Assembly: GCA_041601415.1 (NCBI GenBank) | Contig: JBFIID010000001.1 | Location: 1-36,245, forward strand | Direction: 5' to 3' | Origin: Gammaproteobacteria bacterium | GTDB taxonomy: Bacteria > Pseudomonadota > Gammaproteobacteria > JBFIID01 | DNA: 36,245 bases | Part shown: positions 16,095 through 32,687 of the stretch, piece after piece | Numbering within the stretch: position 1 is the first letter of the stretch | How the letters are laid out: each line of letters starts with the position of its first letter | Notes under the pieces: model-generated | Database searches by the model: none | Told to the model about the DNA's origin: nothing | Seen by the model: the letters and a program-made list of their open reading frames with translations, nothing else | Position numbers and translations under genes: made by a program

Positions 16095-16592
16095 ATGGAT
16101 AAGCAACGTCTGGAATTGTTACAGGGCATGCCCGTGTTTGGTGGCATTGATGAAAGTATTCTGCAGTCACTGGTTGATATGAGTGACACCGTAGAGGTAC
16201 CAGCAGGAAGCTTTTTCTTTCATGAGGGCGATGAAGAGCATTCCATGTATGTGCTGGAATCAGGCGAAGTCATTGTGCTTAAAAACTGGGAGGGACAGCA
16301 GTATTTTCTATCGCGGCTATCGCGTGGGGACTGTCTCGGAGAAATGGCAATGATTGACCTCGACCGACGTGCTGGATCGGTACTCGCCGTAAAGGATTGC
16401 AGCGCTCTGGTCATCACCACCGACCACCTGCACGAAATCTATCAACGTGATGTCACCCAGTTCGCAATGATTCAGATGAATCTGAGCCGTGAATTATCCC
16501 GGCGATTACGCAAGGCCGATGAACGGATTTTTCTACCCCGTATCCGCGCGGTTAGCGTCGGTGGCGGTTATGAATTCATCTCCGAGGTCTAA
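16095..16592 (+). CDS. Stand-alone cyclic-nucleotide-binding (CNB) domain protein
   Basis: CNB beta-barrel with a phosphate-binding cassette (GDCLGEMAMIDLDRRAGSVLA). I see no HTH or other output domain in its 165 aa. Confidence 0.75.
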   Translation: MDKQRLELLQGMPVFGGIDESILQSLVDMSDTVEVPAGSFFFHEGDEEHSMYVLESGEVIVLKNWEGQQYFLSRLSRGDCLGEMAMIDLDRRAGSVLAVKDCSALVITTDHLHEIYQRDVTQFAMIQMNLSRELSRRLRKADERIFLPRIRAVSVGGGYEFISEV

Positions 16593-16598
16593 CTTCCA

Positions 16599-18416
16599 TT
16601 AGTGCTGCAGGTGTCCATACAGACGCTGATACAGTCCCCCGTTCTCAATCAACTCATCGTGCTGGCCTTCTTCGATGATGGAACCTCCGTCAAATACGTA
16701 AACACGATCGGCCTGTTTAACCGCACTTAAACGATGGGCAATGATCAGCGTTGTACGATCCTTTAGAAATTCTGCCATCGCCTGATGCAACAGCACTTCG
16801 GTCTCGGTATCCAGAGATGAGGTTGCCTCATCCAGAATCACGACTTTTGGATCCGCCAGGATCATTCGCGCTATCGCGAGACGTTGACGCTGTCCCCCCG
16901 AAAGGCGGATTCCCGTATTGCCAATCACGGTATCCAGCTTACCTGGCATCGCTTCTACCGTGCTTTTCAACTGCGCAACCTCAAGTACATTCCAGAGTTC
17001 CTGATCAGATAGCGTCGTCCCAAGCGTCAGATTATTCCTCACCGTGTCGTTAAACATCGCCGGATGCTGTAATACCGTGGCAACATGTTCACGCACCACA
17101 TCCATACCGATTTCGGTAACCGGCACATCATCAAAATAGATTTGACCGGAGTGTGGCGTATACATCCCCAGTATTATCTGCACCATGGTTGATTTTCCAC
17201 CTCCACTGGCGCCAACCAGAGCGACTTTTTCACGTGCGCCAATATCGAGGTTTATGTTATCCAGTACCGTTGGGTTATCACCATAGGCAAAGCTAATATC
17301 CCTCAGCTTCACAGAGACCGTAGTTGCCTTGTCGAAAGGGTTTTTCAGATGTGGATACTGCGGTTCCTGCTGCAGAGCCAGTAAACGATTTAAACGCGCC
17401 ATCGCTGCGCGTGCGGCAAAATAGGCGTATTGAATATTCAGGATTTCCTGTACCGGGCCCATCATGAACCACAGATAGCCAAATACCGCCATCATGCGAC
17501 CAACCGATAGATCCGAATACACTACCATGAGCATACTTATCGCCCGAAACACATCAAAACCAAATAAAAATACGGCAAATGAGAGGCGCCCAGCGGCGTC
17601 AGATTTCCAGGAAAAGTTACTCGAGTGGGTGCGAATATCACTGGCGGTATCGATGACTCGATTCAGGTAATGTTTCTCACGGTTGCTGGCGCGTATTTGC
17701 TGGATCGAATCCAGTGTTTCTGTGAGGCATTGCTGAAAAATCTCAAACGCAGAATTCTCTTTTTTCTTTAATTCTTTAACGCGCTTCCCCATGACCATGG
17801 TGAGATAGATCACAACCGGGTTCATTAACAAAATAAATAATGCCAGTTGCCAATGCATCCATAGCAGGATGATGCTGACGCCGATCAGAGTGAGTGAGGC
17901 GACCAGAAATTTACTTAACGTAGCGCCGACGAAGCTATCAACGGCATTCAGATCGGTCACAAAATGAGAGGCCACTGCACCACTGCCAACCACTTCATAC
18001 TCCGCCATGGAAATCCGCTCCAGGCGCGCAAGTAACTCACAACGAATACGATAGACCACATCTTTCGCAACCAGGGTGAATTTCTGCATCTGCCAGACCC
18101 CCAGAAACAGTGCGATCAGGCGTAACACCACCGTGATCAGAAGTATCGCCGAGAGATAGAGAACGGGGCCATGCCAATCTGCCGGAAATAATGCATTGAG
18201 ACTGGCGACAAGGGTACCCGGCTGGTTCAGCAGGACTTCGTCGACCAGCAGTGGCATCAGTAAAGGGATTGGGACACTGGCGATGGTTGCCAGAATGGCG
18301 ACCAGGTGGGCCGCGATTAAAGAGTGTTTATGTTCGCGTGCAATTCCAAGTACGTAGGCCCAGTCATACCCCTTTGCGGGTGGTGGGCGCCTTGTATTAC
18401 TACTGGTCATGATCAA
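16599..18416 (-). CDS. ABC exporter, fused permease-ATPase (type I exporter, MsbA/ABCB-like half transporter)
   Basis: Six-helix N-terminal TMD, Walker A GASGGGKST, signature LSGGQRQR and Walker B VVILDEATS. Length 605 aa. Confidence 0.88.
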   Translation of the reverse strand: MIMTSSNTRRPPPAKGYDWAYVLGIAREHKHSLIAAHLVAILATIASVPIPLLMPLLVDEVLLNQPGTLVASLNALFPADWHGPVLYLSAILLITVVLRLIALFLGVWQMQKFTLVAKDVVYRIRCELLARLERISMAEYEVVGSGAVASHFVTDLNAVDSFVGATLSKFLVASLTLIGVSIILLWMHWQLALFILLMNPVVIYLTMVMGKRVKELKKKENSAFEIFQQCLTETLDSIQQIRASNREKHYLNRVIDTASDIRTHSSNFSWKSDAAGRLSFAVFLFGFDVFRAISMLMVVYSDLSVGRMMAVFGYLWFMMGPVQEILNIQYAYFAARAAMARLNRLLALQQEPQYPHLKNPFDKATTVSVKLRDISFAYGDNPTVLDNINLDIGAREKVALVGASGGGKSTMVQIILGMYTPHSGQIYFDDVPVTEIGMDVVREHVATVLQHPAMFNDTVRNNLTLGTTLSDQELWNVLEVAQLKSTVEAMPGKLDTVIGNTGIRLSGGQRQRLAIARMILADPKVVILDEATSSLDTETEVLLHQAMAEFLKDRTTLIIAHRLSAVKQADRVYVFDGGSIIEEGQHDELIENGGLYQRLYGHLQH

Positions 18417-18451: not shown

Positions 18452-18640
18452 TTATTTATCTTTCAGCTTATATTCCAACAATTCGATGGCCATATTGGGC
18501 ACTTCTTTATGATGGTGTGACTCACGCGGTAATAACCACTCATCGACTTCACCTCGATCGACACTCAGGAGTTCTGCGACTTCACGCCTTTCCAGATGGT
18601 GATCAATCATCAAATCCATTAGCCGCTCACGATTATTCAT
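18452..18640 (-). CDS. Small protein (62 aa), possibly XRE/MqsA-like HTH
   Basis: An internal ATG at 18640 is preceded by a strong SD (AAGGGGAG, 7-nt spacing). It lies 13 nt downstream of the bolA stop. The sequence REVAELLSVDRGEVDEWLLP...PNMAIELLEYKL resembles short HTH proteins. The longer track ORF (to 18769) would overlap bolA. Confidence 0.5.
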   Translation of the reverse strand: MNNRERLMDLMIDHHLERREVAELLSVDRGEVDEWLLPRESHHHKEVPNMAIELLEYKLKDK

Positions 18641-18653
18641 AGCTACTCCCCTT

Positions 18654-18974
18654 TTATTTCTCTGGACTACTGCCACCCATACAGGCAGGTGAAGTGGTAG
18701 CACCGGCCTGCTTACCCTGCCATTCCTGCTGCGTAAACGTGTGCAGGGCGAGTGCGTGAATACCACCACTCATCTGTGAAGCCAGCAATTTGTAAATCGT
18801 TTGATGGCGCTTTACCAGACTCATACCCTGAAAATCATCGGACACAACCACAAGCTTAAAATGACTCTCTGAGCCTGGCGGTACATTATGCTGATGGCTC
18901 TCATTCTCGACCTCCAGATGTGAGATGTTAATGGACGCTTTAATTGTGTTCTGGATCGTTTCCTGAATGCTCAT
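18654..18974 (-). CDS. bolA: BolA-family protein (stress morphogene / Fe-S associated regulator)
   Basis: Near-collinear with E. coli BolA as I recall it: HLEVENESHQHNVPPGSESHFKLVVVSDDFQG...KRHQTIYKLL...IHALALHTFTQQEW...SPAC. Confidence 0.88.
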   Translation of the reverse strand: MSIQETIQNTIKASINISHLEVENESHQHNVPPGSESHFKLVVVSDDFQGMSLVKRHQTIYKLLASQMSGGIHALALHTFTQQEWQGKQAGATTSPACMGGSSPEK

Positions 18975-18980
18975 GGGTTA

Positions 18981-21497
18981 TCAGTTGTCACTCTCTCTAA
19001 AAGAAGCAAGGTCATCAAATAATGACTGTTCGTTCTGTTTACTTTTTTGCATCGCCTGCTCCGCACGCTTTGCGATTCGCTGCATTTGTTCCAGCATCCG
19101 AATATTTTCCTCTCGCTGGTTGGTAGAGTTTTCGAATTTCTCCTGATCTTGCGTCCATAACTCTATATCGTCTTCTATCATCTTTCGTAATTCGGCGGCA
19201 GTGTCTTCCGTACGTTTCATCTCCTGTGTATTGATGATCTGTGCATTATTTGCCGCCTTTTCTGCGAGTTGCGCAGATATCAGTTGCTCACGCGCCTGTT
19301 CAGCCATGGCTTCAACAGCGTTGATCTCATCCTGTAGCTTGGCCTGTTCAATGTTATCAGTTTCCTCTTCTGCGCGTTGTAACTGATTCAACCTTTCTAC
19401 TTCATTCTCAGCCTTCAGTCTTGCTGCTTCCGCCTCTTCACGTGCCTGAAGCGTGAGTTTTAACTCTTCCCGAATCCGTCGAGCCTCCTCCTCCAGCGTC
19501 TGCTTCTCCTGTCTCAGCTTTTCCTCTCCCAGTTCACGCGACTGATGATGTGAGGTTTTGAGTTCACTGATAATCTGTTCAGCTTCTTCTGTGGCAGCGC
19601 GCCTGGCGACTTCAGCTGCGACACGTGCTCGTTGTGCCTGATGAAGTTGCTGCGTTGTTCTGGCAAATTCACTTTCCAGTTTCTTTCTCTCCGTACGAAT
19701 TCTTTCCTCGGCCTCCATGCGCAGGCGCTGCTCCATCTGTTCCTGTTCCTCTGCCTGTTTCTTTAACTGTAATTCTGCCTGCTGCTTGAGTCGCTGGACC
19801 TCAGCCAACTGTGTGCGATTCGCGACACTCTGCTGCTCCAGTAGACGATGTTTGTTTTCCATCTCTACGGCAGCCTGTTCTTTCATTTTCTGTACACGTT
19901 GTAGTTCTTCCGTATTCCTGACGAAAACCTCTTCAAGCCGGGCTTTTTCTTCACGCATTCTTCGCTCTGATTCGGCCTGTAGCTGTTGAATTCTCTGCTC
20001 TTCCTGCAGACGCGTTTGTTCTACTTCTTTCTCAGCCTGTTCCTTCGCCGTGCTGATTTCCTGCTTCATTCGCTGCGCTTCCTGCAGTAGCTGATTGACA
20101 CGTTCAGCCTCTGCATTCATTTTTTCACGTTCCAGACGCAGTTTTTCCTCCAGCTCTTCCTCCATCTGACGACGCGCCGCCTCGACGACACTCCTGAGGT
20201 TTTCGGCCTCCTGCATCTGCAAATCTGCTTTCGCCAGGTCCGCCTTCAAACTGGCCGCTCTGACGCCAACATCCAGTGCAGACCTGTCATCCTCTTCCTG
20301 ACTCTGTTCGCCTGTCTCAGGATCAGCTGAAGCAGACTCCTGTTTCTGAGCGGGTAATTTTTCCTGTTGGTAATTAATTTCGGTAATGGATTCACTACTG
20401 TCAGGTTCATCGTCGACAGCATCTGCAAGCACCTGTGTATCTACACTGGCCGCAAAGGGCGTATTCATAATGCCCGATTCCAGATAACTCACATCAAGTC
20501 CCATCTTGCTCAGAAGATAGGCTGCAACCGAGGCACGACTGCTCACCTCTGAATAGATAATGTATTTTGTGTCTGGCGTGAGTTCACTGACCCGCTGGCG
20601 TAATTCTTTGAGGGGTATATTGATACTGCCAGGGATACTGCAGGCGGCGTGCTCATCCTGAAAGCGAATATCCAGCCAGACCCCGCCCGCTTCAACCAGG
20701 CTTATACCCTCTTCATAGCTCACCGAATTGAGCACCGGTTTTTTAATGAGTTCCGCGAAATCATCCTTGGTCAGTCGCATTACGGATCCCTCCGTTAACA
20801 TAACAACAGAGGCATTTCGCCGGGCACCTGAGACGAGTGCTTCTTCTCCGAAACTCTCCCCGGCGCGCAATTCAGCGAGCTGCACATCCTTTCCATCATC
20901 GGTGCTGCGCAATACCATGCAGCGCCCCTGCTGAATGATGTAATAATAATCTCCGGGTTCGCCCTGGGTAATTACCTTATCACCCGGCTTATAAGTCACC
21001 TCTTCCATGAGGCTGAAGATGCGCTGGATATTCGCGGCGGGAATACGCGAGAATAATTCCGACTCAAGCATTGTGCTCATCCAGTCGGCCTCATCATCTT
21101 CATCAGTTATTGTTATACCGGATGTGTCCTGAACATCTTCTGCATCGAGAGCAAGAAGCCGGTTCAATAAATCCTTGTCAAAACGGATCAGGATTGATTC
21201 ATGTGTGCATCTCGCCGACATCTGCCTCGGCTGTAATTGTGCCAGCGCATTACGCGCACCATCAGTGTCCTCCAGAACTTTTTTCACCAGAGAACCATCG
21301 GCATCCATCTCGACCTGACCTTTGAGCAGATAGTAAGCGTAGTTGTCACGGTCACCCTGTTTGAAAACCAGCTTCCCTTTCGGGTATTTAAACAACCTTC
21401 CCTGTTTTACGAGTTGATCCTGATACTTTTGCGACAGGCCATTGATAGGAATGAGGTTTTTAATCCGGCTCAGCAATTCTTCCTGTTGATTATCCAT
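18981..21497 (-). CDS. CNB(degenerate)-CNB-rhodanese-like-long coiled-coil protein, paralog 1 (838 aa)
   Basis: aa 15-120: CNB-like barrel lacking the FGE/R[ST]A cassette. Acidic linker DEDDEADW. aa 140-255: canonical CNB (GESFGEEALVSGARRNASV). aa 260-345: rhodanese-like (VWLDIRFQDEH...INIPL) whose active-site loop reads YSEVSSRAS, with no Cys. aa 407-838 (nt 18984-20279): uninterrupted E/Q/R/K/A-rich sequence typical of a coiled coil. Confidence 0.8.
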   Translation of the reverse strand: MDNQQEELLSRIKNLIPINGLSQKYQDQLVKQGRLFKYPKGKLVFKQGDRDNYAYYLLKGQVEMDADGSLVKKVLEDTDGARNALAQLQPRQMSARCTHESILIRFDKDLLNRLLALDAEDVQDTSGITITDEDDEADWMSTMLESELFSRIPAANIQRIFSLMEEVTYKPGDKVITQGEPGDYYYIIQQGRCMVLRSTDDGKDVQLAELRAGESFGEEALVSGARRNASVVMLTEGSVMRLTKDDFAELIKKPVLNSVSYEEGISLVEAGGVWLDIRFQDEHAACSIPGSINIPLKELRQRVSELTPDTKYIIYSEVSSRASVAAYLLSKMGLDVSYLESGIMNTPFAASVDTQVLADAVDDEPDSSESITEINYQQEKLPAQKQESASADPETGEQSQEEDDRSALDVGVRAASLKADLAKADLQMQEAENLRSVVEAARRQMEEELEEKLRLEREKMNAEAERVNQLLQEAQRMKQEISTAKEQAEKEVEQTRLQEEQRIQQLQAESERRMREEKARLEEVFVRNTEELQRVQKMKEQAAVEMENKHRLLEQQSVANRTQLAEVQRLKQQAELQLKKQAEEQEQMEQRLRMEAEERIRTERKKLESEFARTTQQLHQAQRARVAAEVARRAATEEAEQIISELKTSHHQSRELGEEKLRQEKQTLEEEARRIREELKLTLQAREEAEAARLKAENEVERLNQLQRAEEETDNIEQAKLQDEINAVEAMAEQAREQLISAQLAEKAANNAQIINTQEMKRTEDTAAELRKMIEDDIELWTQDQEKFENSTNQREENIRMLEQMQRIAKRAEQAMQKSKQNEQSLFDDLASFRESDN

Positions 21498-21658
21498 GCC
21501 ATGTCTCAGTAGTTTCGGTTATACGTTTAGCAGGAGTTTAGCATTGAAAAGCAGAGGATCGTGCCCTGAATGAGGAGATATTCAGGTCATTTTAACGAAT
21601 TGGAAGTAGCGGTGAGGTAAACAACAAACGGAATAAATACGAGGTTAATACCGGTTTA

Positions 21659-24253
21659 TCAATCGTCTTCCAGATCAAATTGCATAGAGAGTTCATTAAT
21701 CAGTTGAAGATCGTGCTGCTTGACGTCTTTACTGGCCTGTTCTGCTCTGGCCAGAATACGTTGCATTTCCTCACGTTGACGTTGCTCCAGACTACGCTGC
21801 TCATCACTATTGGCGTGGAGGGTCTGTTCGGTGATCCATTCCTGCAGGTCTGCTTCCAGTTGCTGACGCAGACCTTCCTCAGCCTCCTGCTGTTGATCCA
21901 GCTTAAGCCGATTATTCTCCTGGGCTGATTCTGCATCGGCATGTACTCGGCGTGCACTACGCAACTGATCGGATGCCTCGTGCAAACGTTCCTCGGTACT
22001 AGCAATGTCCTTTCCAATCTGTTGCTTTATACTATCTCCGGTGGCCTGCTTTTCAAGTAACCGTTTGGTGGCCTGTAAACGTTCCAGATCCTGTTCGGCA
22101 CGCTGCACCGCAAGTCCTGCATCTCGACTCGCGGTGCGCGAGACTAATAACATCTGTTGAATCCGGCTGGCTTCTACTTCAAGTTCTTTACGCTGTTCCT
22201 GCAGGCGTTGCTCCTGCTCCTTCATTGCCGCCTCATGTTCACGCCTGTATTCTTCGACAATTGCCTGCGCTTCACGGTTGGCGGCAATGCGTGTTTCCTC
22301 TGCGGTCTGTTTATCCTTTTGTGCCTGCTCAAGTAACTGACTGTTGTTCGCAAACTCCTGCTCAAGCCTGCGACGTTCAGCCAGCACCTCTGCTCGCATT
22401 TTCCGTTGTAGTGCTTCTTCTTTCCTGATCCTTTCCAACTGTTGTTGTTCGAGCTGTTTTTCAGCGGCTTTCTGGGCTGCTTGCATCACCTCTTTCATGC
22501 GTTGCACTTCACTCAACTGCTGACGATTTTCTTCAACCGTCCTGGACATTTCTCTACGTTCTTCAATCAGTCGGGCCTCTGCCTCCTGTTTAAGCTGTTT
22601 GATGTGTTCCAGTTCCTGAGTATTCCTGGCCGCGATCTGCTGCAATTTCTCCCGCTCAACTTCGAGGTTACGTTCCGCCTGTGTTTCAATTTCACGGATA
22701 CGTTGCTCAACCTTTACATGTGCCTCATTCGACTGTTGATCGGCGATCTGCTTGGCCTTCGCGATCTCCTGTTTAATCTGCTCTGCCTCATCAAGCATGG
22801 CCTTGGCACGCAGATTCTGATGTTCGATTTTCTCACGTTCGAGACGGAGCTTTTCCTCCATATCCCGTTCAATCTTTTCCCGTGCGAGTTCGAGCTCATG
22901 CTTCATTTGCACCGCATCGGAAAGAGATTCATTAATGCGCTGTTCCTGCTCCTTAAGCTTCAACTCCTGCTCACGCATTTGTGCCTCAGCACGCTGCTTC
23001 GCTCTTGCACCTTCAAGCTCGGCCTGTTTTTCCAGTCTTGCGGCCTCCTGCAACCTGATATTTGCGCGCGACAATTCACTATCCAGGGCCGCTGCACGCA
23101 CATCGGCAAGCACAGTCGCTCCACGATCCGGGGCCAAATTAGCCGGTTCTACAGAAGGCCTGGCAGTTTCTGTCACAGGCGTAGGGCTGATCGAGTTAAG
23201 ACCCGTCTCAAGAAAATACACGTCATAACCGAGATTAATCAGTATGAATGCCGCCACAGCAGCGAGACTGCCGTCGTCACAACAGGCGATATATGTCGAA
23301 TTTTCGTCAAGCCTTCTATGTTGAGCCCGAACCAACGGGAGGGGTAAGTTCAGGCTGTTTTCCAGAGACTTCTCGGCATGAGCCTGGGTAGAACGAACAT
23401 CTAGCCACACAGCACCCTCAGATACTCGTACGCGCGCCGTGTCGTTATTAACACCCTTCAAAATCGGCTTCAGCAGTAATTCGGCAAAGTGTTCCCGGTT
23501 GAGCCGCATCAACTCGCCATCTGAATCCATCGTCACAGAGGCGCTACGAATGGCGTTTGCAATGAGAGCCTCCTCACCAAAACAGTCTCCGGTATCGAGT
23601 TGCGCCAGTACGATGTCTTTCATGCCCACCGGAGATCGACGTGTGACACGCGCCTTGCCACTCTTGATGATGTAGTAGTAATCGCCCGGTTCACCCTGAC
23701 AAATGACAATTTCTCCAGCTTTCACTGGAATCGATTCCATACGACTAAATACCATCTGTATATTTGCCGCGGAGATTCGGGAGAACAGGGGGGAATTGAG
23801 GAGAATACTCATCCAGTCATCGTCATCCTCCTCTTCAAGGTCATGCACTTCGAAGTCGGCCTCATGAAGATTCCTTACCTCATCAAGCAAGCTCTCAAGC
23901 AATGTCCGTGAAGTACGGAACAGGGTAACGTCACTCACTGCTTTTGCGGTCATCTGACGTGGACGTAACTGTGACAGGCGGTATCTGGCCTCGTCACTAC
24001 CACCTTCAACCGTTTTCATCATCTGTCCATCACACTCAAGCTGCAACTTACCTTCCAGCAGATAAAACACGTGATCGTCTTTATCTCCCTGCCGGAATAT
24101 TGTTTGTCCTGCTGGGTAAGGTATAAGCTCGGACTGCTTAACGAGTTTTTTCTGTAACTCCAGGGGGAGGGAATTCAGGGGGTCAAGATCACGGATCACT
24201 TCTGGCATCAGGGTGACCAGGCCGGGATCGGAATGTTTTTTCGCTTGTATCAT
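21659..24253 (-). CDS. CNB(degenerate)-CNB-rhodanese-like-long coiled-coil protein, paralog 2 (864 aa)
   Basis: Same domain order as paralog 1: degenerate CNB, EEEDDDDW linker, canonical CNB (GDCFGEEALIANAIRSASV), then a rhodanese-like domain with loop IACCDDGSLA in which Cys is retained. aa 383-864 (nt 21662-23107) are E/Q/R/K/A-rich coiled coil. No obvious SD precedes the ATG at 24253. Confidence 0.8.
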   Translation of the reverse strand: MIQAKKHSDPGLVTLMPEVIRDLDPLNSLPLELQKKLVKQSELIPYPAGQTIFRQGDKDDHVFYLLEGKLQLECDGQMMKTVEGGSDEARYRLSQLRPRQMTAKAVSDVTLFRTSRTLLESLLDEVRNLHEADFEVHDLEEEDDDDWMSILLNSPLFSRISAANIQMVFSRMESIPVKAGEIVICQGEPGDYYYIIKSGKARVTRRSPVGMKDIVLAQLDTGDCFGEEALIANAIRSASVTMDSDGELMRLNREHFAELLLKPILKGVNNDTARVRVSEGAVWLDVRSTQAHAEKSLENSLNLPLPLVRAQHRRLDENSTYIACCDDGSLAAVAAFILINLGYDVYFLETGLNSISPTPVTETARPSVEPANLAPDRGATVLADVRAAALDSELSRANIRLQEAARLEKQAELEGARAKQRAEAQMREQELKLKEQEQRINESLSDAVQMKHELELAREKIERDMEEKLRLEREKIEHQNLRAKAMLDEAEQIKQEIAKAKQIADQQSNEAHVKVEQRIREIETQAERNLEVEREKLQQIAARNTQELEHIKQLKQEAEARLIEERREMSRTVEENRQQLSEVQRMKEVMQAAQKAAEKQLEQQQLERIRKEEALQRKMRAEVLAERRRLEQEFANNSQLLEQAQKDKQTAEETRIAANREAQAIVEEYRREHEAAMKEQEQRLQEQRKELEVEASRIQQMLLVSRTASRDAGLAVQRAEQDLERLQATKRLLEKQATGDSIKQQIGKDIASTEERLHEASDQLRSARRVHADAESAQENNRLKLDQQQEAEEGLRQQLEADLQEWITEQTLHANSDEQRSLEQRQREEMQRILARAEQASKDVKQHDLQLINELSMQFDLEDD

Positions 24254-24716: not shown

Positions 24717-24887
24717 TTGATCAGCACGGAATGAAGCTCCGACTTTGACTGTCGTCACAAAGTGACATATTTCGGCAGTAGCCATACCCGCCAGGACCAG
24801 CCGCAAACACTTACCGGAACAACAGAAAGATCATAACGCACTGTTTTTATTGCTATTTATTGCCTTTTACCTGACGATATTGGTATC

Positions 24888-24903: not shown

Positions 24904-24940
24904 CTATCCACTATAGGAACAAACACAGCAGGGGATTCAA

Positions 24941-25383: not shown

Positions 25384-26226
25384 ATGGATTACCATATCAG
25401 CAAAAAAATCTTGATACTTGATGATCAGCCTGAGATCACCAGTATGCTTGAGATCCAGATAGGTCAGACGTTTGACTGTGTCTTTGTTAACGATCCCTCA
25501 GAAGCCCTGTCCCTGCTGCTTGCAGAAGGGCCGTTTGCTGTAATCATGTCTGATTACCAGATGCCGGGAATGGACGGCGTTACCTTCCTGCAGGAGGCCA
25601 ATGCAAGAAGTCCAGACAGCATTCCAATAATGCTGACCTCTCATATCGATATAGACATTGCGGTTGCGGCCTTGCATGAAGGCAATATTTTCCGGTTTCT
25701 GCGCAAGCCCTGGGAACGGGATGTCATCGTCAAGTCCATCACTGATGCAATGGAACTCTATCGGATAAAAGTCTCGGAACGACTACTGAAAAGAGATCTT
25801 GAACAGGCCAATGAGGAATTGTCGGCTAAGGTTCAGCAACTGATGGAAAGCAATAGCCTGCTGCAACACTGGGTGGAATTCAGCCCGGCAGTAGTGTACT
25901 CACTCGAAGAGCATGATGACGGTTATAAAACCAGTTATGTGAGCAAAAACTTTGAAGATTTGTGTGGCTATGATCGTACCGAATTGTTATCCAATCCGAA
26001 GTTCTGGCTGGATCTGATCCATCCCGATGACCGTTCCAGCGCGATAAAAACAATCATGAACGCTCTGAGCTCGGATCAGGATCCGGGCGTCTACTCGTAT
26101 CGTATCAAACACCGAAACGGTGACTACATAACAATCCAGGATGCCTCGAGAATCGCCTATAACCCGGTCAATAATCGCAAGGAACTGATTGGTGCATGGA
26201 CCAGAATTAATACCACAGCCAACTAG
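25384..26226 (+). CDS. Response regulator: receiver (REC) domain, coiled-coil linker, PAS domain; no enzymatic or DNA-binding output
   Basis: REC with an intact acidic pocket (LILDDQ), phospho-acceptor Asp (VIMSDYQMPGMDG), Thr/Ser (MLTS) and Lys (FLRKPW). A helical linker follows (LKRDLEQANEELSAKVQQLMESN), then a PAS fold (SPAVVYSLEE...YVSKNFEDLCGYDRTELL...IHPDD...YRIKHRNGDY). Confidence 0.8.
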   Translation: MDYHISKKILILDDQPEITSMLEIQIGQTFDCVFVNDPSEALSLLLAEGPFAVIMSDYQMPGMDGVTFLQEANARSPDSIPIMLTSHIDIDIAVAALHEGNIFRFLRKPWERDVIVKSITDAMELYRIKVSERLLKRDLEQANEELSAKVQQLMESNSLLQHWVEFSPAVVYSLEEHDDGYKTSYVSKNFEDLCGYDRTELLSNPKFWLDLIHPDDRSSAIKTIMNALSSDQDPGVYSYRIKHRNGDYITIQDASRIAYNPVNNRKELIGAWTRINTTAN

Positions 26227-26252
26227 CTGGTTTTCTGTTCTTATCTGAAATC

Positions 26253-27533
26253 TCAAAGGCGTTTCGAGAGTTCCTGGCTGGTCTCAGAGAGCCGTTTGAT
26301 GAGTAATTTCTGAAACAGTTTATTGGTGCGCATCTGCACCTGAAGTGACGCCCATTCGGGCAGTGGCGTATCAATTTTAAGCAGAATCACATGATCCAGC
26401 GCCCTTACAGTCGCTGTTCGTTTACCACCGTCCAGATAGGCCATTTCCCCAAAGCAATCACCCGCAGATAAATTTGCAATGATCTTGCGGTTTCTTTCGA
26501 CGGTGACCTGTCCGGAAATGATGATATAAAAACCATCCTGATCATCACCCTCTTCAATCAACGCGCTGTTCCTTGGAAAGGATACCCACTCAGCAACGTC
26601 AACCACCTCTTCTAGCTCCAGTTCAGAGAACTCTTTAAAAAATACCAGCCCCTTGAGGAGTTCCAGTTTCTGCTGATCATTCATCAGACGGACGGGATCC
26701 TGCAGGTCTTCCAGTACCAGCCGCAGATCATCTGCCATTTGCGTACCGTTCTGATAACGATCAGGTAGTTTCTTTTGCAGTGCCCGTTCTACAACCTGAT
26801 TGAGTGATTGCGGTAATTCAGGGCGGAGCTCAATAACCGGCTGTTGTGCCTTATTGATTACATTGTTGATCAGTCCGGAGATACCCTTGGCCGCAAACGG
26901 CGTAGACCCGACCAGCATTTCGTACAACACAACACCAAGAGAAAACAGATCCGTCTGATGGGTGAGTTGTCCATCTGCAGCCTGCTCTGGCGACATGTAC
27001 ATGGGTGAACCATACCAACCGAGAATCTGTGTCTTATCGGCCATGGTACGCTGCGCGATACCGAAATCCCCTATTTTGACCTGTCCCTGCTCCGTCAGCA
27101 TGATATTGGCGGGTTTAATATCCCGGTGGGTAATACCGCGCTCATGTGCGTAGTTCAACGCATCGGCACAATTCATAATGTAGCGAACCACCGTTTCTAC
27201 CGGAAGTAAAACATCTTTTTTGCAGAAGGATCTCAGGGTGTCAGCATGTTCAACAAATTCCATGGAGATATAGGGCTGACCGTCGGCGTCTCCCGCATCA
27301 TAGACTTTCAGAATATTCGGATGATCCAGTGAGCCTGCGGCCTGTGCCTCGTTGAAAAAGAGTTTGCGCGCTTTATGCACCTCTTCTTCTTCAACTTCTT
27401 CGATGGTGCTAACCTTAATCGCAACCTGACGATCAACGAACGGGTCATAGCCGATATAGACCATTCCCATGGCCCCCTTACCGGCGACCCCTGTGATCTC
27501 ATACTTCCCGATTTTTTCCGGCAGGGATTCCAT
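26253..27533 (-). CDS. Hanks-type Ser/Thr protein kinase fused to a C-terminal cyclic-nucleotide-binding domain
   Basis: Kinase motifs: GKGAMGMVY, VAIKV, HRDIKPANIML, IGDFGIA, MSPEQ. The C-terminal CNB has a canonical cassette GDCFGEMAYLDGGKRTATVRA. The start overlaps the stop of the upstream gene by 1 nt (TAATG at 27533). Confidence 0.85.
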   Translation of the reverse strand: MESLPEKIGKYEITGVAGKGAMGMVYIGYDPFVDRQVAIKVSTIEEVEEEEVHKARKLFFNEAQAAGSLDHPNILKVYDAGDADGQPYISMEFVEHADTLRSFCKKDVLLPVETVVRYIMNCADALNYAHERGITHRDIKPANIMLTEQGQVKIGDFGIAQRTMADKTQILGWYGSPMYMSPEQAADGQLTHQTDLFSLGVVLYEMLVGSTPFAAKGISGLINNVINKAQQPVIELRPELPQSLNQVVERALQKKLPDRYQNGTQMADDLRLVLEDLQDPVRLMNDQQKLELLKGLVFFKEFSELELEEVVDVAEWVSFPRNSALIEEGDDQDGFYIIISGQVTVERNRKIIANLSAGDCFGEMAYLDGGKRTATVRALDHVILLKIDTPLPEWASLQVQMRTNKLFQKLLIKRLSETSQELSKRL

Positions 27534-30500
27534 TATGCAACCTCTTCCATCACTACGGATTCGGCGACAGCCAGACCCTGTATATAATCCACGCCTATGT
27601 CCTTCAACGACTCTATGGTCTTCTCATTATTGACCTGATCAGCAATGGTCTTTTTACCCATAAGGTGACCAATCTCATTCATTGATCTAACCAATGCGAG
27701 GTCATTAGGGTTTTTATGCATGCCACGAACGAACAAACCGTCCATCTTGATGAAATCAATTGGCAGAGTATTCAGATAGCCCTGCGCTGTGTCACATTGC
27801 CCAAACCCACCCATACTAAACTTGCATCCGAATTCTTTCATGGTACGAATAAAGCGTTCCGCCTCCTGTTGATTATCAATCACAACTGACTGTTTAATCT
27901 CGAAACAGACTTTCCCCGCAGGCACCCTGGACTCGGTCAACTGCGCAATAATATATTCAATTAACTTATCATCACACAATGAAAGTTCACTGATGTGAAT
28001 CGCACACACCGCCACATCTTTTAGTGTCTTTCTATGGGCAAACATCCATTGCAGCGATCCACGGATCAGCATTCTATCAATCTCGGGACTCTGTTTATTC
28101 AGATGTGCGGCCTGTAGAAAATCCTCCTGTGGGATGAGGATGCCATCCTCGTCTTCAATCCCCAGTATGATCTCATATTGTTCTTTGTCCTTGCTGTCCG
28201 AATGCAGGGGAACTATGCGTTGATAACGCAGCTTCAGAGATTCAGATTTGACGACTTTCTCGACCAGTGCGCGCCAGTCCTTTTTAACCTCTTCGAGCCC
28301 GGTATCTGCCTCATCCTGTGTATGGACATATATCTGGTTTTTTCCCTGTTTCTTCGCGTTGGCCGCCGCACCTGTCACTTCATCAAGCAATTTTTCGGCC
28401 GAGATATCCAGCTCCTGCAGTGACAAAAGACCAATCGATGCACCCACTGTGAACATCTGTTCCTGCCATTTAAAACGGAAGGCCTTAATGTCCTCCAGCA
28501 AAGACTGGAGCTGCTGTTCTGCAGCCTGCTTGTCAACGTCCTTCATCAGTACTGAAAAGCGATCTCCCCCCAGACAACCCGGCAATGGTTGTGGAAAATG
28601 CTCTCGCATAAACTTAGCCAGGGACTTTAACAGGTCATCGGCAGCGTCCTGGCCAAACTTTCTGTTCATTGCTGCTACGCAGTCAAAATTAACTTCTGCC
28701 AGGATGGAGTCTACTCCTGTCTGTTCAACGGCAAGTTGAACTTGTTTGATTTTTTCCATCATATGGCGGCGATTTGGTAGCCCTGTAATCGCTTCATTAT
28801 TGGCCTGCTGGCCTATTTCGTCATGCATCTTATACAGGGTGGTTCGCATCGCACGGTCAACCGGCGGCAGGGTAGGCTTTTCGAGCAGTACGGCAGTACC
28901 ACGGCGTAGCTGCATCGCCAGTTCCTGTAAGGTCATATTCAGGGCTTTATTACCGTTAGCGTCAACAAACACATAGGGGTTGTAGTTGTCACCAATCCAG
29001 GCCAGCGTTACACAATCATCATTTTCAGATGCTTTTTTGATCCCTAACAAGTCGCCGATTTGCATTTTCATCGCACGTTCCAGCCACAGACGCCAGTCAG
29101 CGGGTTGTCGATCTGCATTCGCTAATGGATCAATGTCTGCCGATTTGCCACCACGACGTTTGCGTAACAGTTCCTGCTGCTGCTGATACTGTTTCACTAC
29201 CTGATCAACATTGGACTCATAACGTTCCTGTTGCTGGTGAGCCAGGTGACTGATTTCCGGCATCATCTCGGCAAAGACATTGGCGTCCTGATCATAGTTC
29301 TGATTAATACGCTCCACGATGGTGTCGAGCTGTTCGATGGTCTCGCTATCACCGGCAACTTTAAGATCCGCTATCTGATTCAGTACGGCTCTTGCAGGAT
29401 GCGCTTCATCACTCAGAAAAGCGCCATCCTTGATCGCGAGTTTCTGGATAGTTCCCTGCATCTGGGTAAGACGTGACTTGATCCCTGAACCGAGAAGGTG
29501 ATCAACATCGAATGAACTAACGAATTTGTCAGCCATATTCAGTGCATTTGCATGCGCCTGATTAATTTCAATCGGTGTATCGTCACCCACACGACTTTTA
29601 AGAATTCGTTTAATTCTTGACATGTTATCTTCATTGCCCAGTTCATTCTTCCAGCCTGAGCGATTTTCCCTTTGCAGGACAGACAGGGCCTCCAGAATAT
29701 CTTCACTGGCATATTGCTGGTAGGAAGCGGGCCCCGTATTTTGGCCTGCGACTTCAGAACCCGTGCTCATAGCAGGCACCGGGTTCGTCCCGAACTGTCC
29801 ACCGCCGCTCGAAGACAATGGTGGTGCAACTGAGGGGGCAGCACCTCCCATTGCACCTGCACCTACAGGGCTGCCGGAAGGCATTGAATGCGGTGTCATA
29901 CCCGGTGCATGACCGGCAACCGGTGTGGGCACAACCGCAGAGAAATTACCCTGTTTCAGATTCATCAGATTCTGCATTGCCTGCATGGTCTGACCCGCAG
30001 GTGTGCGGGGAGCCAATTGATTGTCTACCTGACCCGTTACACCTGGACCTGATGGCATCGCAGGCTGCGGGTGAGCTGTTGCAGGAGCTGTCCCTGTCGC
30101 CAACGGTGTCTGGCCGGGTACAGCAGCAGCGCCAGTCGTCGCAGCTGTCTGCCCTGACGTATTTCCCTGAGGACTCACAGCACTACCAGTGGGGGGAATG
30201 CTGTCTGCCGTATTACTCAATTCCTGGGTGTTTGACAACGGCTCAACCACCTCATCAATCTGGCGAGTCGGTTTTGACGTAGGTTTTTTCCAGCCTTCTG
30301 TCTCTGGCTTCTTCTCGGGGAGGCTATAGTATTTGCGTAAAGACTCGTCCAGATCACGGAAGAAAAACTCCAGCCGAGGCACCACGGACTCTTCATAGAC
30401 ACGAAATAAAAGTTCGTTGGTATCGTAACTCAGGTCTATCTGATCCTTGGCGTTCGAAAAGGCAGAGGTGATGGCCGAAACCCCTAGCGGGTTAGTGCCT

Positions 30501-31321
30501 CGTTCCATGGGAAGATTAAACAACTGGCTCAGACGAATTTCTATCTTGTCTAACAATTCGCTATAGCGTGGTTCTGCACGCGAGACAATTTCGGAAGAGG
30601 TCAGAAGATCCTCGAAATCGTCTTTTTCGATCAGTTTCAGTTCACCAGACTGATTAATATTAGAAAAGTCCGGTGCCTGGCCCGATTGCCCCGTCTGTTC
30701 ATACGTTTCCTGTATTTCGTTGAGAAAATAGCTGCTGATGTCAGCCTGTTTCTTTTTTAGCAGGTTCATACATCCGAAATAATCACTCTGCTGCACATTA
30801 TTTTTTGCATCTCGAGCGGCAATAAATAATTGCTCATCGGCCTGTTCAAAGAAGGTCTTTATCAGTGATTTAAGATGCTTTGCAGACAGGAACCAGGTCT
30901 CGTCGAGCACCTTGGCATTTCTTTCCTGTGGCAAGTCAGAACGCCCCAGAGTTGCCTCTGCTTTTTGCTGCTCTGCCAGCAAGGTAAGCGCCTTGAGTGC
31001 ATCTTCCGCAGGGTTTATAAATGCAGCGCCGATCCCTGTGTTGAATACACGCGCGATACTGCCCTGCATTTTGAAAGCGCGCCTCGCCTCATTCAGTTCG
31101 ACATTAAAACTGATGGTTATCTTGTCATCACGCGACAAAAAGCTGATTGCTTCTGCATTGGCCTGAGGGTTTACCAGCGCCAGAAACATTCCCCCGGGGC
31201 AAAAATCCCTTATTTTGCACTGAATATTGGCTGATTTTGCGGTATTCAGAGACGCATCGAGGGATAGAGACTGCCGTACAAATGCACGTTGGTTATTACC
31301 GGAAGAATTATCAGCAGACAT
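27533..31321 (-). CDS. PilZ - DUF1631 - degenerate GGDEF - degenerate EAL multidomain protein (1262 aa)
   Basis: The N-terminal PilZ has RxxxR (RAFVR) and a D-x-C-x-x-G variant of DxSxxG (DFCPGG). DUF1631 hallmarks are present (ADEQLFIAARDAKNNVQQSDYFGCMNLLKKK near the start, LAWIGDNYNPYVFVDANGNK near the end). A P/G/A/T/S-rich insert of about 170 aa lies within it (aa 365-535). The GGDEF domain reads GGDRF (nt 28556-28570) and also lacks the upstream Asp, Lys and His residues. The EAL domain reads YEIILG, with N to H (AIHIS), DDFG to GGFG and EGVE to DQVN. Confidence 0.8.
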   Translation of the reverse strand: MSADNSSGNNQRAFVRQSLSLDASLNTAKSANIQCKIRDFCPGGMFLALVNPQANAEAISFLSRDDKITISFNVELNEARRAFKMQGSIARVFNTGIGAAFINPAEDALKALTLLAEQQKAEATLGRSDLPQERNAKVLDETWFLSAKHLKSLIKTFFEQADEQLFIAARDAKNNVQQSDYFGCMNLLKKKQADISSYFLNEIQETYEQTGQSGQAPDFSNINQSGELKLIEKDDFEDLLTSSEIVSRAEPRYSELLDKIEIRLSQLFNLPMERGTNPLGVSAITSAFSNAKDQIDLSYDTNELLFRVYEESVVPRLEFFFRDLDESLRKYYSLPEKKPETEGWKKPTSKPTRQIDEVVEPLSNTQELSNTADSIPPTGSAVSPQGNTSGQTAATTGAAAVPGQTPLATGTAPATAHPQPAMPSGPGVTGQVDNQLAPRTPAGQTMQAMQNLMNLKQGNFSAVVPTPVAGHAPGMTPHSMPSGSPVGAGAMGGAAPSVAPPLSSSGGGQFGTNPVPAMSTGSEVAGQNTGPASYQQYASEDILEALSVLQRENRSGWKNELGNEDNMSRIKRILKSRVGDDTPIEINQAHANALNMADKFVSSFDVDHLLGSGIKSRLTQMQGTIQKLAIKDGAFLSDEAHPARAVLNQIADLKVAGDSETIEQLDTIVERINQNYDQDANVFAEMMPEISHLAHQQQERYESNVDQVVKQYQQQQELLRKRRGGKSADIDPLANADRQPADWRLWLERAMKMQIGDLLGIKKASENDDCVTLAWIGDNYNPYVFVDANGNKALNMTLQELAMQLRRGTAVLLEKPTLPPVDRAMRTTLYKMHDEIGQQANNEAITGLPNRRHMMEKIKQVQLAVEQTGVDSILAEVNFDCVAAMNRKFGQDAADDLLKSLAKFMREHFPQPLPGCLGGDRFSVLMKDVDKQAAEQQLQSLLEDIKAFRFKWQEQMFTVGASIGLLSLQELDISAEKLLDEVTGAAANAKKQGKNQIYVHTQDEADTGLEEVKKDWRALVEKVVKSESLKLRYQRIVPLHSDSKDKEQYEIILGIEDEDGILIPQEDFLQAAHLNKQSPEIDRMLIRGSLQWMFAHRKTLKDVAVCAIHISELSLCDDKLIEYIIAQLTESRVPAGKVCFEIKQSVVIDNQQEAERFIRTMKEFGCKFSMGGFGQCDTAQGYLNTLPIDFIKMDGLFVRGMHKNPNDLALVRSMNEIGHLMGKKTIADQVNNEKTIESLKDIGVDYIQGLAVAESVVMEEVA

Positions 31322-31604
31322 TACATCGCACCATCCATCTTTTCGAACACGCTTTCATAACGCAGAGTATACCTACTATACACAGATGATTTTAGTAGTA
31401 AATTCATAAGGATGTCATCTCTCCGCAACGCTAAAGGCATAATTGGCGGGTCAGTGAAATGGGTGCTATTGAAAGCAGCAGAATTGTCTACGTCGCAAAA
31501 CCACTAGCAAGTCACAGATTGATTTCTAATTGCTGCCGAGAGTCGAATATACTCTGTTACCCTAATTTCAAATATGTGGCCTTCGCATTCAGGAAAAGAC
31601 CGTC

Positions 31605-32687
31605 ATGCAGTCCCCCGATACGATTGAACATCTTGATACTCTGCTCACCGAAGCACGTCGAAATGAATCGACCTGGAAGCGTTTTCAGCAGATGGAATTA
31701 AGCCTGATGTCCTGTGAATCATTACAGGACCTGTTTTCCCTGATTTATCAGCAGACCCGTCGCGAACTTGACTGTGAGTACAGTCGATTACAGCTACTCG
31801 ATCCTGGTTTCATTCTGCAGCGACTGCTAGAAGAATCCGGTATTCAGACTGGTGCAGAAACGATAGAACTGACATTTTGTGACCGTGAGCATCCGTTTAA
31901 TCTGCGCTATCCAGAATGTCATCGACCTGTACTGGGGCAATACGAAACGCTTCAGCATGCCGAGTTCTTTGCCAACGGCATAACCCCCCGATCTTTTGCC
32001 CTGCTACCGCTGATTCGAGGTGGCGTCCTGATTGGTAGCCTGAACCTCGGCAGTCTTGATGCAAACAGGTTTCATCATGCCAGTGCAACCGACTTTCTAC
32101 AGCATTTCTCGTCGGTCATTGCGGTCTGTCTCGAATCAATGGAGGGGCGTGAACGCCTCAAACACCTGGGCCTGAAAGATGCCCTGACCGGAATTAATAA
32201 TCGCCGTTTTTTTGACCAGCGTCTGCTTGAAGAAGTATCACGTGCCCAACGTAACAACCTGAGCCTGAGTGCCCTGTTTATCGACATTGATCATTTCAAA
32301 TCAATCAATGACCAGTATGGACATAAGATGGGCGACTTTATTTTACAGCAGGTCGCTCAGAATATTCGTGTCCAGTTACGAACCACAGACACCGTCGCGC
32401 GTTATGGCGGAGAGGAATTTGCCGCTTTACTCTGTGCAGACACCATGACCGCGGTTGAGATTGCAGAACGTATTCGCATCAGCACCCATCAGCACAGTAC
32501 ACCGAGCCCGGATAGCGGTGAACCCATACAGGTTAGCGTCTCGATTGGCATCGCCAGTTTGACTGATCTTGATCGCAGTTTAAGCAGTGATGATATTGCC
32601 CAGCAGTTAATCCACCTGTCAGATACCGCGCTCTATCATGCAAAGTCGGCGGGCAGGAACCGTACGATTATTTATCAGCCAGAGTGA
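31605..32687 (+). CDS. GAF/DUF484-like sensor domain diguanylate cyclase (intact GGEEF with I-site)
   Basis: DALTGINNRRFF, IDIDHFKSINDQYGHKMGD, and RTTD-TVARY-GGEEF (an RxxD I-site at canonical spacing). The N-terminal 170 aa look GAF-like (LPLIRGGVLIGSLNLGS). Confidence 0.85.
   Translation: MQSPDTIEHLDTLLTEARRNESTWKRFQQMELSLMSCESLQDLFSLIYQQTRRELDCEYSRLQLLDPGFILQRLLEESGIQTGAETIELTFCDREHPFNLRYPECHRPVLGQYETLQHAEFFANGITPRSFALLPLIRGGVLIGSLNLGSLDANRFHHASATDFLQHFSSVIAVCLESMEGRERLKHLGLKDALTGINNRRFFDQRLLEEVSRAQRNNLSLSALFIDIDHFKSINDQYGHKMGDFILQQVAQNIRVQLRTTDTVARYGGEEFAALLCADTMTAVEIAERIRISTHQHSTPSPDSGEPIQVSVSIGIASLTDLDRSLSSDDIAQQLIHLSDTALYHAKSAGRNRTIIYQPE

Follow-up and report, generated by a model that had tools for sequence, protein, structure and literature searches.

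In most bacteria, cyclic AMP (cAMP) acts through CRP-type regulators alone, according to a recent review, and the cAMP receptors cited outside that family include CbpA in Pseudomonas aeruginosa and CbpB in Myxococcus (PMC11139211). CbpB is PKA-R-like and has the kinase SpkA as an interaction partner. Cyclic mononucleotides can also act on cyclic di-GMP (c-di-GMP) signalling: Bd1971 of Bdellovibrio, in which a cyclic nucleotide-binding (CNB) domain is joined to an EAL domain, is a c-di-GMP phosphodiesterase activated by cAMP or cGMP, and Lcd1 (GAF-GGDEF) and Tlr0485 (GAF-HD-GYP) are cAMP-regulated cross-talk proteins (PMC8846402). Deletion of XC_3388, a DUF1631 protein of Xanthomonas campestris, disturbs the regulation of GGDEF genes as well as biofilm formation and motility, and so hints at c-di-GMP (10.1101/2022.02.07.479439). 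Here we examined a 16.6-kb region (nucleotides (nt) 16095-32687) of a 36,245-bp stretch of DNA, hereafter the window, which is an entire contig of a metagenome-assembled genome (MAG) from an uncultured gammaproteobacterium. The region encodes a Ser/Thr kinase fused to a CNB domain, a large DUF1631-containing protein that we call the scaffold, and two paralogous CNB-CNB-rhodanese (CCR) proteins, and an original prediction had treated it as one coordinated signalling cluster of cyclic-nucleotide and c-di-GMP components.

We hold with moderate confidence that the region is instead a lineage-specific juxtaposition of two independently conserved modules and four unlinked genes, the modules working by mechanisms that we infer below. 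Module A (18981-25201) comprises the genes for the two CCR proteins, named CCR838 and CCR864 from their lengths in amino acids, a DUF465 gene and the small gene orf86. Module B (25384-31321) comprises the genes for a REC-PAS protein, the kinase and the scaffold. Gene content was mapped from a listing of open reading frames (ORFs) and Pfam scans of the window ORFs, and it bore out the six CNB domains in four genes that had been predicted (one in the small protein CNB165, two each in CCR838 and CCR864, and one in the kinase), as well as the PilZ-DUF1631-GGDEF-EAL protein with degenerate GGDEF and EAL domains, a GAF-GGEEF cyclase, the REC-PAS protein, bolA, an ABC exporter, DUF465 and two small ORFs, each where it had been placed.

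The case for two modules comes from related loci, labelled here by L-numbers; the relatives of this organism are all MAGs. For module A, a genome scan gave 80 CCR-anchored loci with 10-kb flanks, which we searched by tblastn with 28 window proteins; for module B, 10 loci anchored on the kinase or on DUF1631 were informative. The kinase, DUF1631, BolA and REC-PAS were not found in any of the 80 CCR-anchored loci, and neither a CCR gene nor BolA, DUF465 or orf86 was found in the 10 kinase- or DUF1631-anchored loci. Modules A and B were therefore never found together elsewhere (0 of 90 related loci), and the full gene set, whose synteny in relatives had been proposed as a check on the original prediction, was absent around both kinds of anchor. 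Each module was, on its own, recurrently conserved.

The kinase of module B (26253-27533, minus strand) is a Hanks-type Ser/Thr kinase of 426 amino acids in which the G-loop GKGAMGMV and the VAIK, HRDIKPAN, DFG and SPE motifs are all intact (Pfam Pkinase, E = 3.6e-47). Its CNB domain lies at the C terminus (nt 26370-26585; Pfam cNMP_binding, E = 1.9e-18) and, by motif reading, has a canonical phosphate-binding cassette (GEMAYLDGGKRTAT; GDCFGEMAYLDGGKRTAT). By these motifs the protein combines a predicted active Ser/Thr kinase domain with a canonical CNB domain, as would be expected of a kinase dependent on a cyclic nucleoside monophosphate (cNMP). Among the top 120 clusters of the family, all contain Pkinase and cNMP_binding, at lengths of 422-471 amino acids and at least 50% identity; the identical kinase sequence turned up in Logan metagenome assemblies and in the record of the window itself, and nowhere else. 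In an AlphaFold2 (AF2) model (pLDDT 83.9, pTM 0.69), the kinase domain superposed on Mycobacterium tuberculosis PknB with template modelling (TM) scores of 0.84-0.89 at 33-35% identity, PknB and StkP being its closest relatives; no solved structure with a CNB domain after a kinase domain was found among the structural matches. Like PKG and PKA, the window protein couples a Ser/Thr kinase to a canonical CNB of the PKA-R/PKG type, but the AGC-type catalytic domain and N-terminal tandem CNBs of those enzymes are not present, the catalytic domain being PknB-like and the CNB single and C-terminal. The window kinase-CNB protein looks like an independent bacterial fusion, and we found no description of kinase-CNB proteins in the literature.

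The scaffold (27533-31321, minus strand; 1,262 amino acids) is encoded immediately upstream, its stop codon sharing 1 nt with the kinase start. Pfam and motif reading place PilZ at nt 30983-31294, GGDEF at nt 28334-28792 and EAL at nt 27560-28252, with a DUF1631 that is split by an insert rich in Pro, Ala, Gly, Thr and Ser (nt 29642-30316; Ser plus Thr 19.6%). We take the insert, from its composition, to be disordered. It is present in all six scaffold orthologs compared, with Ser plus Thr at 15-21% in five of the six. The PilZ domain has the RxxxR motif (QRAFVRQ at residues 11-17), and its second motif reads DFCPGG, with Cys for the Ser of [D/N]xSxxG; this variant is conserved across the family, and residues R12, R16, D39, C41 and G44 were at least 90% conserved in a sample of 38 family proteins. 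The GGDEF domain reads GGDRF and has no RxxD I-site, and in the EAL domain the signature reads EII, DDFGTG has become GGFGQC and EGVE has become ADQVN. Both domains are degenerate in the window copy and most orthologs; judged from the family consensus, which is near-canonical, the loss in EAL is limited to the window copy and its closer orthologs. We predict that the window scaffold is catalytically dead; its role is presumably that of a receptor or scaffold, not of an enzyme.

This architecture is not rare. An exhaustive phmmer search for PilZ plus DUF1631 returned 233 clusters at E <= 1e-30, the best 150 of which were mostly 1,150-1,385 amino acids long, and a cutoff of E <= 1e-10 gave 1,464 protein clusters with DUF1631. 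In the 38-protein sample, which was evenly spaced across the scaffold family, DUF1631 was found in 38, EAL in 34, GGDEF in 33 and PilZ in 23. No relatives of the scaffold were found in the PDB. As far as we found, the PilZ-DUF1631-GGDEF-EAL architecture is populous and apparently undescribed, and its fusions to PilZ, GGDEF and EAL domains independently tie DUF1631 to c-di-GMP. XC_3388 shares DUF1631 with the scaffold but has it as its sole predicted domain (10.1101/2022.02.07.479439), whereas the scaffold adds PilZ, GGDEF and EAL and has a kinase-CNB partner gene. The tandem GGDEF-EAL without catalytic motifs in a large multidomain protein recalls LapD and FimX; the N terminus differs, being PilZ, DUF1631 and the insert in the scaffold, HAMP/periplasmic in LapD and REC-PAS in FimX. 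The best NCBIfam match to LapD in the window was the GAF-GGDEF protein, far below cutoff.

The third gene of the module, REC-PAS (25384-26226, plus strand), encodes a receiver domain (Pfam Response_reg, E = 2.7e-15) followed by PAS_3. It is convergent with the kinase gene across a 26-nt gap. The receiver residues are complete (DD13-14, D57, T85 and K107-P), an output domain is absent, and no cognate histidine kinase was found in the window.

Kinase and scaffold were paired in nine of the 10 informative loci, six of which were kinase-anchored and four scaffold-anchored (L176 was excluded as too short), and in three of the four when DUF1631 was the anchor. Seven pairs are co-directional, with spacing from a 4-nt overlap to a 17-nt gap, and two are divergent. 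In L086, L087 and L088 (kinase identity 61%, 59% and 61%), the scaffold lies upstream of the kinase, with a 4-nt overlap in the first and a 1-nt gap in the third, and is split by an IS21 insertion in L087; REC-PAS orthologs (48-51% identity) occupy the same position in all three, convergent downstream in L086. The scaffold is likewise upstream in L090 (kinase 53%, 1-nt overlap) and L091 (51%, 17-nt gap), and in L089 (54%) the two genes are divergent and 272 nt apart. Among the scaffold-anchored loci, L172 (scaffold 30%, its kinase 49%) has the order class III cyclase, scaffold and, after a 16-nt gap, kinase; in L173 (27% and 50%) the scaffold is followed by the kinase with a 4-nt overlap; in L175 (28% and 49%) the kinase is divergent, the scaffold is split in two and a GAF-PAS-cyclase gene is convergent; and L174 (scaffold 24%) has no kinase, with an Hpt-REC-GGDEF gene upstream and a histidine kinase gene downstream. 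The scaffold-adjacent kinase was always the true ortholog (49-61% identity), and extra paralogs were 42-45% identical.

Those extra paralogs, one or two within 10 kb, were seen in L086 (2014-5433), L087 (822-2126), L088 (1-4538) and L091 (1-179), which suggests a lineage-specific expansion of this kinase type; in L087, L088 and L091 one of them adjoins a GSDH/DUF7133 (sorbosone-dehydrogenase-like) gene. The insertion in L087 (L087:3842-9998) is an IS21-family insertion sequence (IS) element (IstA/IstB-like, 6778-9032) that cuts the scaffold gene upstream of the kinase into DUF1631-GGDEF and EAL parts, and is a natural disruption of module B. In L172 (6931-9562), genes for TIR-domain, MotA/ExbB-like and OmpA-like proteins, a trio reminiscent of anti-phage systems, come straight after the kinase.

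The original prediction had also proposed asking whether the cluster co-occurs with a specific cyclase gene. A partial answer came from two of the 10 loci, in which a class III cyclase gene is adjacent to the kinase-scaffold pair (L172:1-809 and L175:7082-8905). The cyclase of L172 resembles the Ma1120/Rv1900c type. That of L175 is fused to GAF and PAS domains and is closest to the Cya2 catalytic domain; its base-specifying residue is Lys ("vdKymgd"), as in the 6fht fusion, which is named an adenylate cyclase, and in contrast to the Glu of Cya2 (2w01). By inference from these features, both cyclases point to cAMP.

We propose that scaffold and kinase form a translationally coupled pair in which two messengers meet. 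The scaffold most likely binds c-di-GMP through its PilZ domain. cAMP, made by a class III cyclase that would be encoded elsewhere in the genome, would release the kinase through its C-terminal CNB, and the released kinase could phosphorylate the insert of the scaffold, the obvious target, or REC-PAS, or could dock on the scaffold. Module B would thereby join a cAMP input with a c-di-GMP input, to which REC-PAS may add a phosphorelay input in the closest lineages, and in this organism a local supply of c-di-GMP could come from the GAF-GGEEF cyclase encoded alongside. Bd1971, Lcd1 and Tlr0485 offer the nearest likeness, as cyclic mononucleotide sensors that control c-di-GMP signalling; in those proteins, however, the sensor is fused to an active enzyme, whereas in module B the CNB sits on a kinase and the partner is separate and predicted to be catalytically dead. 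Coupling in module B, if there is any, would go by way of phosphorylation or binding and not by allosteric control of turnover.

Module A is built around the two CCR proteins, which share one architecture by Pfam and motif reading: a divergent CNB, a canonical CNB, a rhodanese domain and a long helical tail. CCR838 (18981-21497) and CCR864 (21659-24253) are both encoded on the minus strand, and at 838 and 864 amino acids they are smaller than the term "giant" used in the original prediction implies. In both, the first CNB has lost the Gly-Glu of the cassette and kept the invariant Pro-Arg, a variant conserved family-wide, and the cassette of the second CNB is canonical. Against a family consensus of CDTGxRS for the rhodanese loop, CCR864 retains the Cys and has no loop Arg (CCDDGSL, nt 23189-23280); in CCR838 the catalytic Cys is replaced by Ser (YSEVSSRAS, nt 20433-20520), and by this reading the paralogs have diverged in the very residue that defines catalysis. 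The tails comprise 478 residues in CCR838 (nt 18984-20417; rich in Glu, Gln, Ala and Arg, with Pro plus Gly at 1.3%) and 504 in CCR864 (nt 21662-23173), with Glu at 17-20%, Gln at 13%, Arg at 10-11% and Pro plus Gly below 2%, and their final 60 or so residues are similar to each other. A heptad test gave a helical periodicity of about 3.6 residues and no clear 7-residue signal.

The two paralogs are 36% identical over 853 amino acids and fall into separate clades of a neighbour-joining tree, CCR838 grouping with an "A" type of about 800 amino acids. A recent tandem duplication is ruled out by this low identity and the different clades, and the pair reads as an old duplication whose products have diverged since ancient times. 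Full-length orthologs of CCR838 (34-40% identity) were found as 17 ORFs in 13 closely mapped relatives, one member per pair. The CNB-CNB-rhodanese head of CCR864 had 671 homologs at E <= 1e-10, the best 47% identical and most of them tail-less proteins of about 350 amino acids.

By sequence, the CCR head is closest to the domains with which PKG and PKA-R bind cGMP and cAMP, and the CNB of Bd1971 is also among its sequence matches. An AF2 model of the CCR864 head (pLDDT 85.4, pTM 0.42) found its best fold matches in CNB-A/B of PKG I-beta and in PKA RI-alpha (E = 1e-19 to 1e-21), with nucleoside-binding trypanosome PKA-R structures also among the matches; TM scores were just 0.3-0.4, and with a pTM of 0.42 the model does not fix domain orientation.

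Among characterized CNB proteins, CbpA and CbpB resemble the CCRs in that neither is a transcription factor. In CbpA, a divergent CNB precedes a canonical one, the same order as in the CCR head. Compared by description alone, the CCRs differ in their rhodanese domain, in a helical tail some 500 residues long and in forming conserved pairs. Gammaproteobacterial proteins of about 350 amino acids, those of Sulfuriflexus mobilis and Thiogranum among them, have the same CNB-CNB-rhodanese head (37-47% identity), and CCR-head homologs are annotated merely as "cyclic nucleotide-binding domain-containing protein". We found no description of CNB-rhodanese coiled-coil proteins in the literature.

Short and long forms differ in their neighbourhoods. 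Profile searches split the 80 CCR loci into 29 with long-tailed proteins and 51 with short forms only, and a second CCR gene lay within 3 kb in 14 of the 29 long-tailed loci and in none of the 51 short-form loci. Within the same distance, long-tailed loci had DUF520 (YajQ) in 14, DUF3301 in 14, DUF465 in 11, an orf86-like gene in seven and a standalone PilZ gene in six, against 0, 0, 1, 0 and 0 of the 51 short-form loci. Pairing and a neighbourhood with orf86, DUF520 and DUF3301 were thus features of the long-tailed CCRs alone, and DUF465 was nearly exclusive to them (1/51 for short forms). YajQ proteins are known c-di-GMP effectors (PMC4199771), and the four standalone PilZ sequences inspected from near CCR genes all carry RxxxR and NxSxxG. 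A standalone PilZ as the link between modules A and B was rejected, the best similarity to the scaffold PilZ being E = 0.02.

In the window, the DUF465 gene (24507-24716, plus strand; a small helical protein, Pfam DUF465, E = 2.4e-13) is divergent from CCR864 across a 253-nt gap, and DUF465 homologs at CCR loci were 52-65% identical by tblastn. It is followed by orf86 (24941-25201, plus strand), an 86-amino-acid protein that matched neither Pfam nor NCBIfam and has homologs beside CCR genes. One or other of DUF465 and orf86 was carried by 18 of the 29 long-tailed loci, as opposed to one of the 51 short-form loci; the two were never together in the 29 loci and replace each other in relatives. 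Homology between them was considered and rejected (hhalign probability 0.15%). By these comparisons, long-tailed CCR pairs make up a second uncharacterized family, with a plainly conserved set of partners.

In module A as we picture it, CCR838 and CCR864 would form a hetero-oligomer through their tails, and DUF465 or orf86, both small helical proteins, would bind the CCR assembly. A cyclic nucleotide at the second CNB could then switch the assembly state, and a thiol or sulfur signal at the rhodanese domain perhaps likewise.

Several other genes were seen near CCR genes. DUF520 and DUF3301, found beside long-tailed CCR genes (for example, L006:12755-13780), are both absent from the window. In L010 (8081-8884; Methylohalomonas lacus) and L014 (7923-8543), some 1-1.5 kb separate the CCR gene from a gene for a Tll0287-like protein, and the window copy (7479-8051), 38-40% identical to these, lies 11 kb from a CCR gene. 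Large M16 peptidases are encoded a few kilobases from CCR genes in the window (12569-15457, pitrilysin-like) and, as M16C/PreP-like members, in L006 (14588-17494) and L020 (15039-17939), a link that may be coincidental because the subfamilies differ.

Four further genes of the region, those for CNB165, the ABC exporter, BolA and the GAF-GGEEF protein, appear unlinked to either module, and no protein of 16095-32687 reached an NCBIfam equivalog cutoff. CNB165 (16095-16592, plus strand; 165 amino acids) is a single CNB domain (Pfam cNMP_binding, E = 1.5e-18) with a canonical phosphate-binding cassette (GEMAMIDLDRRAGS), and no ortholog of it was found beside CCR genes, the kinase pair or ABC-exporter orthologs. 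TIGR03896, whose CNB members are associated with ABC transporters of the bacteriocin type, was weakly matched by CNB165 (47.6 bits) and by the kinase CNB (54.9 bits; cutoff 161), and 6 nt separate the end of the CNB165 gene from the convergent ABC exporter gene. That exporter (16599-18416, minus strand; ABC_membrane and ABC_tran by Pfam; 605 amino acids) is MsbA-like, MsbA being its best NCBIfam match (365 bits against a cutoff of 602); L011, L018, L032 and L035 have orthologs (62-65% identity) at a distance of 5-8 kb from CCR genes, in a different arrangement.

The BolA-family gene (18654-18974, minus strand; Pfam BolA, E = 7e-29; NCBIfam BolA 124.6 bits against a cutoff of 137) lies 6 nt downstream of CCR838, and BolA was absent from all 80 CCR loci and all 10 kinase- or DUF1631-anchored loci. 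The small orf105 (18452-18769, minus strand), which had no Pfam match, probably has an internal true start because the ORF as listed overlaps bolA by 116 nt; its C-terminal 60 amino acids are 52% identical to an ORF in L009. The GAF-GGDEF diguanylate cyclase (31605-32687, plus strand; 360 amino acids, DUF484-like GAF by Pfam and motifs) has an intact GGEEF and an RTTD I-site and is the sole c-di-GMP writer in the window. Its gene is divergent from the scaffold gene across a 283-nt gap, and no ortholog was found beside module B in the 10 loci. At its other end, its 3' end and that of a convergent KefC-like antiporter gene share 13 nt (32675-32687).

How far does the region nonetheless behave as a unit? 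With a custom CNB profile made from the window CNB domains and their homologs, we found 94 CNB ORFs in 1.29 Mb around the 80 related loci, all of them anchors or anchor paralogs. In 0.78 Mb of unrelated contigs (80 Ser/Thr kinase loci, at 35-41% identity over the kinase domain only, from the alignment scan with the kinase-CNB protein) the profile found no CNB gene, and one match once relaxed to E = 0.1; the profile may overlook Crp/Fnr-type domains. At the 95% upper bound of this background, two extra CNB genes within 16.6 kb have P <= 7e-4. The unusually high density of CNB genes in the original prediction is thus supported, being well above the background measured with this profile in about 2 Mb of comparison DNA.

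We nevertheless regard it as unlikely that the whole 16.6 kb is one coordinated, co-regulated output and integration pathway selected as a unit. The CNB density far above background would fit such a pathway, as would the tight gene spacing with few unrelated genes and the recurrence of a CNB reader beside a c-di-GMP reader (PilZ or YajQ by the CCRs, the kinase-CNB by PilZ-DUF1631). This last pattern is a part of the coordinated-cluster claim that stands; the claim of a single unit is not supported, as the 16.6 kb is not one syntenic unit: the 90 loci gave no synteny between A and B or for BolA, CNB165 or GAF-GGDEF, and the ABC exporter is a partial exception in four loci. The genes of 16095-32687 alternate in strand and make up at least five transcription units. 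Promoter-like and terminator-like sites between 15400 and 32800 (11 against 19.5 expected, and 21 against 15.8) were not above chance and give no operon evidence either way.

The opposite view, that the modules are functionally unrelated neighbours in a signalling-rich genome and that their adjacency means nothing, seems to us quite unlikely. It gains from the rarity of the arrangement, A-B adjacency having been seen in one genome, and from the two to three kinase-CNB paralogs within 20 kb in the closest module-B relatives, which make a CNB expansion possible; if the genome holds 25-50 CNB genes per Mb, the P value for two extra CNB genes rises to 0.07-0.2. Yet the roughly 2 Mb of comparison DNA contained no unrelated CNB gene, signalling genes that share a messenger tend to cluster, and other lineages again have CCR genes next to c-di-GMP effectors.

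We consider it distinctly improbable that some or all of the CNB domains read c-di-GMP, a nucleoside, another ligand or nothing, leaving a c-di-GMP network for which no cNMP writer would be required. Binding of c-di-GMP is known for the CRP-like proteins Clp and Bcam1349, nucleoside-binding PKA-R homologs are among the fold matches, and for the first CNBs of the CCRs, which lack the cassette Gly-Glu family-wide, such a ligand is plausible. No class III cyclase lies in the window, and this holds for cNMP phosphodiesterase and histidine kinase domains too (zero by Pfam across the window ORFs, a gene cut by the contig end included). The pattern of "readers but no writer", offered originally as a sign that the signals are made elsewhere, carries no weight as evidence, the window being one complete 36-kb MAG contig and not a genome. 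Three observations argue for cyclic mononucleotides: by motif reading, four of the six domains have the canonical phosphate-binding cassette (G-E...R-x-A-[ST]); the nearest sequence relatives are the domains with which PKG and PKA-R bind cGMP and cAMP; and class III cyclases stand beside module B in two relatives.

That the region is a mobile island or serves in anti-phage defence, through Pycsar-like CNB effectors or through a Ser/Thr kinase of the defence kind, deserves almost no credence, for the PADLOC matches that hint at it (the CNBs to the CNB part of PycTIR, the kinase to PD-T4-6 and mad6) are to generic domains alone and extend to none of the scaffold, REC-PAS, GGDEF, DUF465 or orf86 proteins, and the IS elements and integrase near the pair in L087 and L088 and the TIR, MotA-like and OmpA-like genes after it in L172 are offset by a window with no TIR, transmembrane effector or Pycsar cyclase and hence none of the Pycsar hallmarks, with no tRNA, flanking repeat, integrase or transposase, and by a kinase that belongs to a well-conserved ortholog set (at least 50% identity) among housekeeping genes such as those for glutaminyl-tRNA synthetase and isocitrate dehydrogenase.

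Against the juxtaposition of two conserved modules, and the mechanisms we attach to it, stand several observations. A-B adjacency could persist in closer, unsampled relatives, given that the nearest CCR relatives are 35-47% identical and the kinase relatives on long contigs 59-61% identical. The PilZ call on the scaffold is borderline (22.3 bits against a cutoff of 22.5), with Cys replacing the Ser of the motif; a distant scaffold homolog, L174 (24% identity), has no adjacent kinase; and a cyclase is adjacent in just two of 10 loci. In module A, the CCR tails may be single alpha-helices and not coiled coils, the first CNB of both CCR838 and CCR864 is without the cassette Gly-Glu, and CNB domains can take other ligands, such as the nucleosides bound in trypanosome PKA-R structures.

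The rest of the window is occupied by genes of other kinds. An MMPL/RND-type exporter gene at 1-2157, which runs off the left contig end and was missed by the ORF lister, adjoins LolA-like and pqiAB-type genes (PqiAB with an auxiliary lipoprotein). The others encode Tll0287-like, ParA and PP-loop proteins, an acyltransferase, a Rap1a-like protein, GNAT and DinB proteins, the pitrilysin-like M16 peptidase, the KefC-like antiporter and a glycerate kinase. The Rap1a-like protein (10448-10825) belongs to a type VI secretion immunity family, and no effector or type VI secretion system gene is visible nearby. At the gathering threshold, Rfam found no RNA families in the window, and ARAGORN found no tRNA. 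No integrase or transposase domain was found among the window ORFs by Pfam, and direct repeats that might flank the region were just short, chance-level ones, so that the integrase or transposase, tRNA target and flanking repeats of a mobile genomic island are all wanting here; GC content dips mildly (0.455-0.48).

Together, our results describe two conserved gene sets that are made of domains of known kinds and both appear undescribed, and it is these separately conserved units, not a dense "island", that are worth following. We put forward, tentatively and as a possibility that is more doubtful than not, the joint proposal of a widespread, unrecognized bacterial junction between a cAMP-dependent kinase and its scaffold together with a heteromeric CCR filament or tether, with tails of about 500 residues, that is gated by cyclic nucleotide and by thiol or sulfur status. 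If true, the junction would be a direct post-translational link between cAMP and c-di-GMP, coupled through phosphorylation and not through control of c-di-GMP turnover, and would thus be a different kind of junction. It would also give DUF1631 its first function. A domain whose function has so far been approached through one pleiotropic mutant of Xanthomonas would thereby gain a testable hypothesis.

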